Assembly (NCBI GenBank): GCA_010093605.1 | Contig: MU004193.1 | Location: 875,520 to 939,519, forward strand | Length of the DNA stretch: 64,000 nucleotides | Source: Lophium mytilinum | Taxonomy: Eukaryota | Direction of reading: 5' to 3' | Part shown: one piece after another, positions 6,543-14,381 of the stretch | How the letters are laid out: each line of letters starts with the position of its first letter | How positions within the stretch are numbered: position 1 is the stretch's first letter | The notes under the pieces: generated by a model | The model's database searches: none | Told to the model about the DNA's origin: nothing | The model's input: the letters and a program-made list of their open reading frames with translations, nothing else | Position numbers and translations under genes: made by a program

Positions 6543-9500
6543 TTAACAGAGCGGCAGTGCCAGGACTGCCCTGCTTCCCGCTCATTCCTGGTCGGTGACC
6601 GGGGGCCCTGATCATTTCTGTCTGACAGGCGGATGGTGGGGTTTTGGCAGCGGCATTGCTTCATGGGCTGATGTCTGCGTCCACTCCAACATCAGGAGAG
6701 CCGCGTGTCGTCGATTGGACTGGCTGGCGGGGGCCAGATTGCTGCTTGGGCTCGGCTGCTGTTGCTGAGATTGTTGATGCATCTTTCAGGAGAAGAACTG
6801 GTTTGACCCAGCCCGCCGGGTCGTCAGCGGTCCAGCACTCGTATCGCTCGAGATGTCCTCGCAAACCTGCCAGGCGAGATGCGGTGCCAGATAGAGTGAG
6901 CACTCCCAATTACCTCAGGCGACACGGCTGTGCAACCTCGCGTGGGACCTTGGAGGCCGCTCGAGGTTTCGAAGCATTCCGGTATCTGTTCCGAACACGG
7001 CCTTTGCTCACGAGCGCAGGATCAGATGCTATCCTCTGCAGCAGCGCGTTGACCAATCAGCACGCGTATGGCACTATTCGAAGAGCGTCGCTCACAGGCT
7101 TGCATCAGTCACCGGAAAAGGCAGCTTTGCGACGCCTCTCCGTCCGTATCGCTCCTCTCCGCACGAATCGCGCTCACAAATCGGCTGACGTGGCATGCAA
7201 ACTGGTCTGGCTGCAATATGCGCAGCTTGGAAGATGGAGGCCTGACGATATTCCCCTTGTGTGGCGATCGACGTGCGACGTGCGACGCGACGTGCTGGAT
7301 TGTTGTCACTCTCCGCATTTCCGCCCCAGTCCCGTGACTTGCGCGTGATTGTACGTAGCTAGGATTGCGGCACAGCGGTGGAGAAAGGCCCAAGCCAAGC
7401 CAGCAGCCCTTTTCCGCTCGGACGACGCCTTGCTTTTCGGCAATTGTCGTTGGCGCCGGGACGACTTCCATGGGTTAAAAAAACGGTGCTCGGAGCGATT
7501 TTTTAACAAAAAGCCACTCATCATTCCGCGACGCCTTGCAGCCCTCAGCCAGCCTTCGCAGACCCGGTGCGGATCGTGGCCGATGTGCTTCGGGGGCCCT
7601 CGCCGAGTCTTGATCGCGGTTTCGAGGCTGCGAGCCCGTGACAGCCCAACCCCAACCACACATGTGCTGGCTGTGGATCGACTCTTCCCCACTTGTCCGT
7701 GGCCTTGCTCCTGGTGTGTCCCAGTGTGCTTGTTGGACGTCCTGGCAGCTTCCGGCACCCCTGTCCTGACGAGCTCTCATCTGCCACTGCGCATCGGGGC
7801 TGCCACCGTTCTAATGTCTCAAAACGACGCCAGAGCAAACAGAGACAAAGGTCGAGTCTGCATGCACCAACGTCCCAATTGCCCATTAACGTCAGCTGAA
7901 CGCGCCGGAATCAAAATTGCCTGGCGCAATCGGCGCTGCAGACGCAGTAGCACTCATCCGCTTCGTCCGAAAATAAAGTCCGCGAGCGACGCGACCAAGC
8001 GGAGATTTGGGCATCCATCACTATTACGCTGTATAACCGTGAGGCGAACATCACCACGCCGGGTGCGACAGTGCTTCGGCGACGTCTCAGCCTGCGTGAG
8101 TCGTTGGAGAGACGAGGACAGCAGGTGGATTGTGCAGCAGCCTCGTCGTGGTGCCGTTCTCGTCGAGCTTCTAGTGCCCTTCTAGAAAAAGGGGTCATTC
8201 CCTTCACTGCGGTTTCAATCGCTAACTTTATATCGCCAACGAGTCACGCCTGTCGAAGCACTGTTGCACCATCGCAATGGGCGGCTTTGGCGGGTGGAGT
8301 ATTGATGGATCATCAAACATCATAGCCCAGTCACTAACATCGAACGAACCAACTAACAATAGAATAGTCACACAAACAACGAGTTCTTATTACGAATTAC
8401 TTCCATCCATCCCACGCATCGACCACCACAAACGCGTCCTCCCAGTTGCTGTTTCCAGCCAGCGTAGAAACGAAACAGTCGCCGGATCACGAGATGAGAT
8501 GCGTCAAGGCGTCCCACCGTGTCTTGTGTCCCACGACCGCGTTTGCCCGCCATCACGGGCTCGGTCGGTCATCTCCAACGCCGTAACTGTGGATGCCGCA
8601 GCGACGAGCACGCCGGTAATGGAAGGGATGCCCACGCGCGTGCCATGCCGTCTCACCATTCCGCAGCAGTACCGTCCGCACGTACTGCAGAACCAAGCTG
8701 GGAGACCCATTGCACAGGCACCGTTCAATTCGAACCGCTGGTAGCGATTCGAGATGATCCGGGTCGGGGGAGGGCAAGGCGTGAGCGAACGGGACACCTG
8801 GAGCATCGGCTCTCCAGCGTCCTTTCCAGCATTCCCTACCACAAATACACGTCTCGTGCGACCAGCGGCCGTTCGAGACGTACAAATACCAGCTAGCGGC
8901 GCTGTGGTTGGGCGGTTGTGGTTCCATACCACTCGCCCTGTTGCGTGCGGCGTGATGCAAATAGAACGGCGTTTCGTGCTATATCGAAAACCGAAACATT
9001 GTAAGTGGTATGTATTTTCAGAGAATGACAAATCTCCAGACGTCGAAACACTGCCACGGCAGGAAGGCGGGTGCTGTTGTCAGCTGGCCTGGACCTGCGC
9101 CTGGGTTGCTGGACGCGCGATGTGGGTGCTGTGGAAGGTGAGTTGCGGTGGTTATGCGTCTGACGGTAGTACGGTTTGTGAATCCTTCGCGCGAGGCGGG
9201 CGGGTGTTGGGTTTCAGAAGGCTGCCTGCATCGCATGGCATAAGGTGGGGGCTGCGACTTGTTTTAGTCGTGGTATCCGGTGATGCTGTGCGGGGTGCGT
9301 GAGAAGGATCAGTTTCTGGTTTCGGGTTCGTGGTCTAAGATAGGAGATCGAGAGGTAAGTCTTGTAGTGCTGAACGGGTAAGTCTGGTTGGCCTGTTCCT
9401 TAATACCGCATCTAGAATTCGAGTTTAGAGTACATCAAATCTATGCACCTATGCGCTATCTACCACGTCTCAGTCACTATCATGCCAATATCTCAAATAC

Positions 9501-9780
9501 TGTTCTCGTGTCTATGCAAAACTCTATAATTACGCAGTCATCAAGCCTCTTTCTACGTCAAACTACCTCGCACGCACCAATGTCTTGACCGTTCACGGAC
9601 GTAGACTTCATGCTACCACCATCTCTCCACCATCGTCCAACACAGCCTCCATTCTCTCTTTTCCCCACTCTGCTCCGTACACAAGCTAAACTAAGACCCC
9701 ACACTACCAACTTCAAACTAGCTACCCCGTGCTTTCTGAAACCAACCCGGCAGCTGTTCGGCAATGCCATCTCGCCGTCT

Positions 9781-10067
9781 ATTTATACACCATCATCAGA
9801 ATAGCTCACCCTGACCTTTCCTACCTTCCTGAACCAGAACCAGCCTTCCCCACGTCGGGGCGTCGTATGTTTAGCGTGTGTACGTCCGCTACGCGTCCGC
9901 CGAGGTGGCTAGTACACTACCTTGCTCAAGCAAGCGGGGAATGCTATGAAGCTGCGAAGTGGATACATTAGGAAGGTAGGAGACGGGCATCGTGATGGTA
10001 GCTTAGGTATGTAAGTCACGAGTCGGCGTGACGATCTCGTGATCAGGGCTTTTCGGCTAGTATAAAT
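9781..10067. promoter_or_regulatory. Putative bidirectional promoter 1 of the non-coding array cluster
   Basis: GTATAAAT on - strand (9788-9781) and on + strand (10060-10067). E-box variants lie between them (CACGTC 9851, CACGAG ~10017, CTCGTG 10036-10041). Confidence 0.55.
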
Positions 10068-10089
10068 GTTTCTAGAATAGATGCATGGC

Positions 10090-10260
10090 CTCGAGACATG
10101 GAGGAGGACGTCCAGTTGGCTGTGCAAAACACTCCCGGGCAAATGGAAATGGACTTGGGCCGTGGAGCAACAAGCGAGGATATGGATTTTTATGTGCGCT
10201 CTGGGTCAATGAAACCGTCAAATTCAGAAGGGAAATGGTTGGTGCCGGGCAGACTGGCCT
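10090..10260 (+). repeat. Degenerate ~45-nt repeat/spacer array (candidate ncRNA unit)
   Basis: ATGGAGGAGG..GTGCAAAA (10098), ATGG..GGAGCAACAA (10143), ATGTG..GGGTCAAT (10192), ATGGTTGG..GGGCAGA (10235). Confidence 0.45.
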
Positions 10261-10449
10261 TTGGAAACTTGGTATCAGTCGAAGGAGATGATGCTGAGCA
10301 CTACTCTTCAGAACACCTCGCAATCCTTTCCATGCTCGCAGTCTATCATTACCATACCCCTAAAGCTTCTCCGATACCGCTAATGCTTCTCGTCACTATT
10401 ACTTCCTTGAACCCCCACACTAGATCCACCCTTCATCAAAGTCTTCGTC

Positions 10450-12906: not shown

Positions 12907-13087
12907 CTTTATACCTCCAGCCACGAAAGATTTCAGTTCCCACGTGCTTCACGTGCTCCATCTATTCACGTGCCTCTCTTATCCGCCAGCACCTTCTCCA
13001 CCGCCTCCAAGCAGACCCTCTCGGAGGAGTTCCTCCGTTCCCCGATCACGGGGTCCACGTGCTTCCAGACTTCTCCCGTGTATAAAA
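12907..13087. promoter_or_regulatory. Putative bidirectional promoter 3 (TATA / 4x CACGTG / TATA)
   Basis: GTATAAAG on - (12914-12907), CACGTG at 12941, 12950, 12967 and 13056, GTATAAAA on + (13080-13087). Confidence 0.65.
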
Positions 13088-13129
13088 GACCGCAAAGTTG
13101 CGATTCTGGTTTTTCTTCTTCATGGGCAG

Positions 13130-13430
13130 AGAGAAGGAGGAGGGATCAAATCCAAGACAGCACCTCACTTCATGTGGTCGGGGGTGTGCTGCAGTCTGGT
13201 CAAACAGAGCGGCCCATCATATCATGTCTGGGGCGGAGAGCGTTTGGATCAATACCCCCGTTTAGATTGATCTATGTGGTTGGAGTTGAAGATTTCGGAT
13301 CAGACTTGCACGCATGTTATGTGGTTGAGCCGGTATTTGGGGAGAGGGAGGACGTGCTGTTTTCTGCTGATGGTGAACACTAGACCCTCCGGCTCATGCG
13401 GAGCATAAGAAACGTTGGATAAAGCTTTTC
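13130..13430 (+). repeat. ~50-nt repeat/spacer array (candidate ncRNA unit)
   Basis: ATGT(G/C) starts at 13172, 13224, 13274 and 13319 alternate with GG(A)TCA(A/G) at 13143, 13198, 13246 and 13297. Intervening segments of ~15-21 nt are unrelated. Confidence 0.55.
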
Positions 13431-13696
13431 GTTATCCGTGGGGAGATATTATACGCAGTATGCCGGCGTGATACTGCTTTTCGTCATCGCTTAGAAGTCA
13501 TACTCGCGGAGTCCTCCATCCTCCACTCCATGATACTCCCGGTACTCCTGATTTGATTGCTCAACCGCCAGTCTACTCCCATACGATCTTCGTCTGTGTT
13601 ATTTGATCCAACCTCGACCCATTATTCGGTTCGATTTCAATCTCCCCTTCCACTCCCAGGAATCTCTCTTGCCTTTACCTCTGCTCCGCCATCAAC

Positions 13697-13749
13697 CTTT
13701 ATACCCTCCCAAAAGAAAGATCTCTTCCACTTACCTAAGCACACACGTG
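13697..13749 (-). promoter_or_regulatory. Seventh TATA/E-box module of the cluster
   Basis: GTATAAAG on - (13704-13697) and CACGTG at 13744. Downstream on the minus strand are ATGGGTCGAGGTTGGATCAAA and ATGGGAG..GAGCAATCAAA units. Confidence 0.5.
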
Positions 13750-14381
13750 AGCTACATGACTCTATACACTCTCTGACGACTGTGTCATCTGCGGTAGCCT
13801 AACGTACCCACAAAACGTCTAACGCGTCTAGCACACGCGATGTCACCTGTTTGAAAAGAGGATTCAGAGACTTCAAACGGCGTCACAGCATTAAAGATCT
13901 AGAACAAGTCAAGTTTTTTGAAAGGAAGACATCCATTCCAACTATGTAGAGACCCTCTCCAAAATTCCGCCGGTACCCGCAGAAAAGGCAAAGCCAAAGG
14001 GAAAGAACAGCAAGTGATCATATTCCCGTTCAGCATTAGCCTCTTACAGCACCATTTTTTGGAGGTAAAGCCCGATGCATAGTCTCAATATACCAAAACC
14101 CCGCTGCAAGCAGGAAGTCGAAGCCCCGTAAGAGAACTAAACTCCAAGCTGTGCAAGCAGACACGAGACGTTCGCCCGCCAGAGGGGAAGAAGGAAAAGA
14201 TGGGTGGAAGGGCAAGGGAATGAGAGTGGGAGGAAAGAAGAAGTGACTGGAAGAAGTAACTCGAAGAAGTGAGGTTGACGTGCAGGAGTAGTCCGGACAT
14301 ACGAGCCAGAGCAATTAATTGCAATGCTCTATCCACAGGCAAATCCAGTACCGTAGTGCCTCACACATCCGACCGTCCGAC

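Follow-up and report, generated by a model that had tools for sequence, protein, structure and literature searches.

A candidate family of seven paralogous non-coding RNA genes with TATA-box and E-box promoters and tandem sequence modules in Lophium mytilinum

Introduction

What does a stretch of fungal DNA do in which TATA boxes recur in strictly alternating orientation and no credible protein gene can be found? The question is raised by a 4.3-kb region, at positions 9400–13760 of a 64,000-nt stretch of the genome of the fungus Lophium mytilinum (assembly GCA_010093605.1, contig MU004193.1, positions 875,520 to 939,519 of the forward strand); the whole of this stretch is called the window here, and all coordinates refer to it. 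A first reading of the bare sequence, to which we refer as the original prediction, had described the region as a cluster of seven divergent and convergent mini-transcription units, each heading a G-rich repeat-spacer array, and had proposed that they are duplicated RNA polymerase II (Pol II) cassettes making short non-coding RNAs, possibly precursors of ~20-nt small RNAs. We follow up that proposal computationally, counting the seven putative transcription units along the window as U1 to U7. The answer that we favour, tentatively and with confidence that stops a little short of calling it probable, is that the region holds seven paralogous long non-coding RNA (lncRNA) genes, a family restricted to one lineage, which would be driven by TATA boxes and E-boxes and would carry multivalent sequence modules. 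The sequence evidence behind it is solid, and at least one of the units, U3, appears to be transcribed.

Results

Clustered TATA and CACGTG boxes

The pattern GTATAA[A/G] has 16 matches on both strands of the window, and seven of them fall within 3923 bp, where 0.59 would be expected from the rate outside (Poisson P 3e-6). Our recount places them at the same seven positions as the original prediction, −9788, +10060, −10945, +11099, −12914, +13080 and −13704, in strictly alternating orientation. The hexamer CACGTG is similarly clustered: of 21 occurrences in the window, eight lie within 10975–13749 against 0.59 expected (P 2e-7), three of them in the gap between U3 and U4, four in that between U5 and U6 and one upstream of U7. 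Its reported concentration between the divergent pairs is therefore real, though the gap between U1 and U2 has none, the module there showing CACGTG only as one-mismatch versions, read by eye.

These boxes would arrange the units as three back-to-back promoter modules (U1|U2, U3|U4 and U5|U6) and a single U7, each unit having a GTATAAA-type TATA box and five of the seven (U3–U7) having their nearest CACGTG E-box 19–40 nt upstream of it. The candidate bidirectional promoter module between U3 and U4, P34 (10946–11098), has CACGTG at 10975, 10994 and 11075, and that between U5 and U6, P56 (12915–13079), has it at 12941, 12950, 12967 and 13056. Six of the eight clustered boxes are of the form GCACGTG, the one at 12967 reading GGCACGTGA, and a CT-rich stretch precedes the first ATG in U3 and in U6. 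Taken together, the strong TATA box, the E-box held close by at a fixed distance and the CT-rich stretch speak for Pol II promoters that are inducible and co-regulated, and we infer from this anatomy that co-regulation would run through the E-boxes: since five of the seven units share the proximal box, they are probably switched on jointly by a basic helix-loop-helix (bHLH) factor.

A one-directional repeat grammar with tandem arrays in U3 and U6

The transcribed strands had been described as G- or purine-rich, and over the 2512 nt of the seven putative sense strands G indeed amounts to 31% and C to 18%. The repeat grammar was captured by a regular expression that requires ATG, 8–28 nt and then GGAGCAA, GGATCAR, GGTCAA or GGTTCAA. 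Searched on both strands, the window has 19 matches, and 13 of these fall within 9283–13622; on the seven sense strands the expression matches 12 times, against a mean of 0.46 and a maximum of four in 1000 dinucleotide shuffles, and on the antisense strands not at all. Short words taken from the same strands are likewise in excess, GGAGCAA occurring seven times against 0.25 expected, GGAGG 27 times against 7.0 in shuffles and TGG 92 times against 58.8.

By unit, U3 holds five matches and U6 four, U2, U5 and U7 have one each, and U1 and U4 have none. The claim that at least five units repeat the grammar is overstated: true tandem arrays are confined to U3 (minus strand, 10471–10851) and U6 (plus strand, 13122–13369). 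Their unit lengths, 46, 41, 52, 48, 49 and 46 nt in U3 and 50, 52, 50, 45 and 51 nt in U6, are mostly not multiples of three, as had been noted. Chains of ATGs at steps of 40–53 nt number nine in U3, a length reached by none of 2000 shuffles, and six in U6, reached by four of 2000. The U3 array has in addition a higher-order period of 95–97 nt in which unit types alternate (repeat families D6, D10 and D13), the 56-nt copies of D6, in which the f and h units lie, being 79% alike. When 19 repeat units are aligned they follow a common plan with a mean column identity of 38%, the ATG column being invariant by construction. In U3 and U6, the A-type transcription units, the RNA would be made of tandem ~48-nt modules, each consisting of AUG, a UGGAGG-rich G tract, GGAKCAAA and ~20 variable nucleotides. 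The variable spacers gave only chance matches of 12–14 nt to the rest of the window (blastn-short, both halves).

Enrichment of G-rich words could also arise if the element acted as DNA, the arrays being sites for a zinc-finger factor within a regulatory region and the RNAs enhancer-type by-products. The CreA-type motif SYGGRG does occur 20 times on the sense strands against 9.2 in shuffles (reached by one of 500), which together with the excess of GGAGG speaks for such sites. We nevertheless think this improbable, because all grammar matches have one orientation relative to the TATA box, the stress response element AGGGG is not enriched on the sense strands (8 against 6.9), the conserved ATG and CAAA parts are left unexplained and there is no evident target gene, the promoter of the neighbouring helicase gene (13932–19000) being on its far side. 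G-quadruplexes were considered and rejected: the region contains no G3-type motif, and G2-type motifs, at about one per U3 unit, number 222 across the window.

Coding potential and known RNA families

A codon log-odds score was trained on six Pfam-supported open reading frames (ORFs) of the window. The training genes score 0.18–0.30, and in 38 chunks the median is 0.23 and the 5th percentile −0.05. For the region, the 13 candidate ORFs all fall between −0.26 and 0.02. The longest ORF to start after any TATA box, the 124-aa ORF of U2 (10098–10472), is not coding-like at 0.017. None of the 27 stop-to-stop ORFs of at least 60 aa belongs to a Pfam family (one chance match, E 0.054), and the 82-aa ORF of U3 and a 188-aa ORF at 12817–13380 have no homologue among 5.8 billion proteins. 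The U2 ORF gave a single HMMER match (P0001, E 1e-6; 1.84 billion representatives), which we judged spurious, as it traces to a short motif that recurs seven times in a repeat protein of 1987 aa, each copy having 11 identical residues out of 31. An exact look-up found none of 10 ORFs of the region, a weak negative since the queries included the stop codon, and tblastx among the units gave nothing below E 0.03. Where U2 and U4 are aligned with MAFFT the indels measure 5, 2, 7, 15, 5 and 3 nt. The original prediction held that the 4.3 kb has no credible protein gene and that its units are non-coding, and on both counts we agree, because codon scores are low (at most 0.02), the indels between these paralogues are mostly not multiples of three, and no family or credible homologue was found.

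The AUGs nonetheless open short ORFs of 7–124 aa, and the units might be polycistronic mRNAs for micropeptides, or else de novo genes of very recent origin. Consistent with this, ATG is enriched on the sense strands (63 against 49.7, a count reached by 18 of 500 shuffles), every array unit begins with ATG, and ORFs of 24–124 aa follow the TATA boxes. The core DNA motif, however, changes its reading frame between neighbouring units (giving GAK in one and SK in another, for example), the codon scores are those of non-coding DNA, no peptide is conserved between paralogues or has homologues, the indels would mostly break the frame, and position −3 is a pyrimidine at seven of the 12 array AUGs, all of which makes small-peptide genes an improbable explanation. 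Precursors of ribosomally synthesized and post-translationally modified peptides, of Kex2-processed repeats or of pheromones were discarded as well: a signal peptide, a dibasic-flanked repeated peptide and a CAAX end are all absent, and the frames shift between units.

Known structured RNAs do not account for the region either. Rfam 15 has no match at E ≤ 1 over 8000–15500 except a chance Histone3 match (18.5 bits, gathering threshold 34) inside an insertion described below; at the gathering threshold the window yields three tRNAs only, all outside the region; and ARAGORN finds no tRNA in the region, which disposed of an origin from a tRNA or short interspersed element. Since neither array RNA folds better than shuffled sequence (z −0.74 for U3, with 25 of 100 shuffles folding as well, and +1.42 for U6, with 96 of 100), a hairpin-type, microRNA-like precursor is argued against.

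RNA from the cluster

Evidence of transcription comes from a single public run, X1, whose kind was guessed and which holds 30% of the sampled words. That it contains spliced RNA follows from a contig of 5540 nt (depth 369) from which five CT..AC introns of the gene on the minus strand at 13932–19000 are missing. Within the cluster, a contig of 578 nt (depth 8.95) spans exactly 10333–10910 with no mismatches and no joints, and its upper end lies 29–35 nt downstream of the U3 TATA box (10939–10945). By bin arithmetic this contig explains the bin depths in full, which leaves the promoter module, at 10911–11070, uncovered and gives a residual depth of ~1x over 10137–10332. Read-through from U2 would thus explain the contig less well than an unspliced U3 RNA of 0.58 kb or more, the contigs themselves being without strand. 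Residual depth is also present at 11071–11537 (U4), at 12939–13405 (U6, 0.99) and in the U7 bin (2.17), which suggests low-level RNA over U4, U6, U7 and part of U2. Uniform DNA contamination is disfavoured because X1 cover shows gaps; the zones that lack cover (U1, 9670–10136 and 12005–12471) were not used as evidence. With start sites and strands as we infer them, the products would be unspliced, purine-rich RNAs of ~0.3–0.6 kb that encode no conserved protein.

Paralogy and history of the units

P34 and P56 align in inverted orientation over ~165 nt (score 24 against 12.4 ± 2.0, z 5.8, 0 of 200 shuffles), compared with z 0.5 in direct orientation. P56 also aligns with the U7 promoter, in direct orientation (z 4.0), and so does the U1/U2 module, in inverted orientation (z 3.5). 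Among 21 pairs of transcribed tracts compared, U2 and U4 are colinear over ~175 nt (z 6.2, 0 of 100 shuffles), the alignment of U3 with U6 extends across one and a half array units and takes in a spacer (z 3.6, 0 of 100), and the remaining 19 pairs have z ≤ 2.4. Identity is ~55–65% where units can be aligned, and a stricter scoring scheme finds nothing significant between them, so the copies must be old. On these alignments the units are old paralogues, and a simple history would have a module of A-type array unit, promoter and B-type unit present twice in direct orientation (U1|U2 and U3|U4) and once inverted (U5|U6), plus U7. The notion of duplicated Pol II cassettes gains from this, as promoter modules and tracts are detectably paralogous and the unspliced RNA contig begins where a TATA-driven start of U3 is expected. 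No further members of the cluster were found on reading 5880–6480.

Shared descent might also suffice without any function. In the main rival to our reading, an intergenic segment was duplicated in direct and inverted orientation and then underwent 48/96-nt minisatellite expansions, the grammar would reflect descent plus G-rich composition, and fortuitous TATA and E-boxes would give weak transcription as a by-product. The degree of identity between paralogues fits such a relic, as do the 95–97-nt period and the closely similar D6 copies, which are what recent tandem duplication should leave, the low expression in X1, and the finding of nothing related beyond the L. mytilinum genome in protein and metagenome-contig searches; so does the aligned spacer of U3 and U6, which is no less conserved than the core. 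What neutral descent does not readily explain is that ATG and CAA positions persist across nine and six successive units while the spacers differ, that the distance from E-box to TATA box is held at 19–40 nt in five units, and that the contig boundary fits a TATA-directed start. We regard it as unlikely, while giving it serious weight.

The best-conserved block between U2 and U4, GGnGATGATGCTnAGnAnTACT, lies at 10284–10305 and 11310–11331 (82% identical), ~210–225 nt downstream of both TATA boxes, and resembles an imperfect C box. That the block GATGATGCT, which is conserved between the same two units, marks a C/D small nucleolar RNA was considered and set aside, as the C box is imperfect, CTGA is not conserved and Rfam finds nothing.

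Convergent units beside a helicase gene

Laid out along the window, the putative units are as follows. U1 (9400–9788, minus strand, TATA box 9782–9788) is the weakest, without CACGTG or a grammar match. U2 (10060–10480, plus, TATA box 10060–10066), a B-type tract, is the paralogue of U4 and converges on U3 (10333–10945, minus), whose tandem array has ~8 units. U4 (11099–11487, plus, TATA box 11099–11105), also B-type, is cut on its 3' side by the insertion, beyond which lies U5 (12728–12914, minus, TATA box 12908–12914), with a short tract, one grammar unit and a core promoter like that of U7. U6 (13080–13500, plus, TATA box 13080–13086) has a five-unit array in the GGATCAAA/GGTCAAA variant, and U7 (13400–13749, minus, TATA box 13698–13704, CACGTG at 13744), with one or two grammar units, converges on it. 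The TATA boxes of the convergent pairs U2/U3, U4/U5 and U6/U7 are 885, 576 (insertion removed) and 624 nt apart.

The gene on the minus strand at 13932–19000 encodes a superfamily 1 helicase with ZNFX1, AAA_11 and AAA_12 domains. Among solved proteins it is nearest to human ZNFX1 (E 4e-113). The named homologues closest to it belong to Lophium mytilinum (98% identity) and Mytilinidion resinicola (89%), which places the window in the Mytilinidiales (Dothideomycetes) and not in the Sordariomycetes, and relatives of the protein carry the Joint Genome Institute name 'helicase required for RNAi-mediated heterochromatin assembly 1', so that by sequence it is an Hrr1/ZNFX1-type helicase. No relative of the protein was found among metagenome contigs. 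The depth of this gene in X1, 369, is ~40x that of its neighbours, and its five contig-confirmed introns measure 55, 57, 104, 60 and 162 nt.

It is conceivable, then, that 3' overlaps within U2/U3, U4/U5 and U6/U7 yield double-stranded RNA for a pathway of RNA interference (RNAi) or one resembling that of dicer-independent small interfering RNAs (disiRNAs), possibly tied to the adjacent helicase, and this is the closest form of the earlier small-RNA idea and the only one in which it survives. The three convergent pairs have their TATA boxes 576–885 nt apart, an overlap of U2 and U3 RNAs would follow from the U3 contig reaching 10333, inside the expected U2 tract, and the neighbour is a ZNFX1/Hrr1 homologue. 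The disiRNA loci of Neurospora crassa, as far as the consulted part of that report goes, arise at convergent, overlapping transcription in non-repetitive DNA of a filamentous ascomycete (PMC3764098), a likeness in which the overlap here is a predicted one; the same part describes neither a repeat grammar nor clustered TATA/E-box promoters, and the fungal class differs. No hairpin-like structure was found in the array RNAs, the grammar of AUG, G-rich tract and CAAA would go unexplained, and the position of the helicase gene alongside does not show that the two are linked. We rate a convergent small-RNA locus as a poor prospect, on a par with the DNA-level and small-peptide accounts.

A mobile-element insertion within the cluster

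The 4.3 kb is not uniform: the original prediction overlooked 11488–12727, where a mobile element has inserted between U4 and U5, at the ends by which these units converge. It consists of 2.2 copies of a 563-bp unit, is not a member of the unit family, and bears the marks of repeat-induced point mutation (RIP): GC is 0.32, TpA/ApT 1.59 and (CpA+TpG)/(ApC+GpT) 0.58, against 0.65–0.83 and 1.12–1.14 for the two indices in the flanking units. It begins TGTTG and finishes CAACA, and the 5-bp direct repeat CAGTC stands at 11483–11487 and 12728–12732. In X1 its terminal segment has a depth of 97, with loose ends at 11479, 12726 and 12732, from which we conclude that other copies exist elsewhere in the genome. 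The assignment as a mobile element thus rests on the 5-bp duplication, the RIP indices and the dispersed copies. The first 116 nt of the 563-bp unit recur three times in an A-B-A-B-A layout that recalls a miniature long terminal repeat (LTR) element with an extra LTR-internal copy; neither a primer-binding site nor a polypurine tract could be made out in it.

A genuine mobile-element relic in the middle of the region raises the question of whether the whole is a decayed transposon, or else a broken or spliced protein gene, the outcomes named at the start as fatal to the non-coding proposal. Outside the insertion there is no RIP signature, and the 27 ORFs lack domains of any kind, those of transposases and reverse transcriptases included. 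The units are not bounded by terminal repeats, the RNA contig over U3 shows no splicing and the repeat lengths are mostly not multiples of three. The suspicion is thus well founded for 11488–12727, and the units match neither a transposon nor a spliced gene; for the cluster as a whole we consider this explanation very improbable indeed.

Wider surroundings

On the other side of the cluster, ~3.5 kb of 5900–9466 lies under X1 contigs (6238–7256 and 7651–9466); its ORFs, which have no Pfam family, resemble what translation of non-coding DNA of high GC would give, and the stretch may be a long non-coding RNA that converges on U1. At 9100–9400 the plus strand is G-rich (G 0.35–0.43) and has one grammar match at 9283. 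Inverted repeats of ~70 nt at about 6035–6106 and 6391–6462 enclose ~285 bp in the manner of a miniature inverted-repeat transposable element, and X1 has loose ends close by at 5947 and 5995. Far from the cluster, the tRNA gene at 53608–53692 scores 56 bits with Rfam and is reported by ARAGORN as 'tRNA-???' with the anticodon shown as 'tg'; it may contain an intron.

Discussion

In the reading we favour, that of a family of lncRNA genes, the modules of U3 and U6 would offer one RNA-binding protein a series of sites to land on, or else scanning ribosomes would be captured at many poorly contexted AUGs, and the RNA, once induced, would act as a multivalent scaffold or sponge. Any binding function is proposed by analogy with repeat-module lncRNAs, such as Xist with its A-repeat, NORAD with its repeat units and Schizosaccharomyces pombe meiRNA with its clustered motifs for the determinant of selective removal. 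Like them, the units would be non-coding Pol II transcripts with tandem short conserved cores and variable spacers, here in U3 and U6 only, an arrangement that suggests multivalent binding of one protein. They differ in that the AUG/UGGAGG-rich/GGAKCAAA motif matches none of their cores, the UNAAAC core of meiRNA being fitted by just two of ~12 CAAA-type motifs, and is not known to match a fungal RNA-binding motif, and in that the RNAs here are much shorter and come from a cluster of seven paralogues whose TATA/E-box promoters are bidirectional.

A number of our own results weigh against this reading. Arrays are present in just two of the seven units, and the regular expression was post hoc, written after the sequence had been seen, so that exact P values are soft, the contrast with shuffles being large all the same. 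In the alignment of U3 with U6 the spacer is identical at 13 of 20 positions, no less conserved than the core, and selection on the modules specifically is therefore not shown. As for RNA, a contig is listed for U3 alone, U2, U4, U6 and U7 having low residual depth only; U1 has no X1 cover over 9467–10136 by bin arithmetic; the depth over U3 is ~2% of that over the helicase gene; and X1 contigs carry no strand, true ends or expression level. Finally, the GCACGTG form that predominates in the cluster is found also at eight of the 13 CACGTG sites elsewhere in the window.

The last point bears on the identity of the regulator. Non-coding RNAs of phosphate starvation are known both from plants (IPS1/At4) and from S. 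pombe, and the CACGTG core is bound by bHLH factors other than those of the phosphate pathway too. Two bHLH factors of N. crassa are described as binding such boxes, NUC-1 preferring GCACGTG and NUC-3 recognising GGCACGTGA, and the promoters of the phosphate (PHO) regulon, to go by the consulted part of that paper, resemble those proposed here in having several CACGTG boxes near core promoters (PMC12506109), six of eight being GCACGTG in our cluster. Because this flank is also common elsewhere in the window it is not diagnostic, and the regulating factor cannot be named.

The alternation of conserved ~27-nt and variable ~20-nt segments downstream of a promoter gives the arrays a superficial likeness to those of clustered regularly interspaced short palindromic repeats (CRISPR). 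Here, however, the host is eukaryotic, the repeats are degenerate and of variable length, there are no cas genes, and the spacers are without matches in the window. It is tempting to speculate that these are eukaryotic repeat-spacer RNA genes, that is, inducible lncRNAs with a fixed handle of AUG, G tract and GGAKCAAA and a functional ~20-nt segment, which would provide either guide-like small RNAs or varied targets for a handle-binding protein, in a self-duplicating cluster beside an Hrr1/ZNFX1 RNAi helicase gene; we would give such a system only a very slim chance.

In open-access literature on fungal promoters, lncRNAs and disiRNAs, searches none of which was aimed at Dothideomycetes, no such family of units was described, and to our knowledge very few fungal lncRNAs have a recognisable internal architecture. 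What the locus offers is a small paralogous family whose members would share promoters of TATA box and proximal E-box, with a tandem bipartite RNA module in two of them, and it could thereby bring to light an RNA-protein system of a multivalent kind in Dothideomycetes. Should the units instead be neutral duplicates, they would provide a clean example of how promoter-bearing DNA duplicates into new transcripts, the raw material of new genes.

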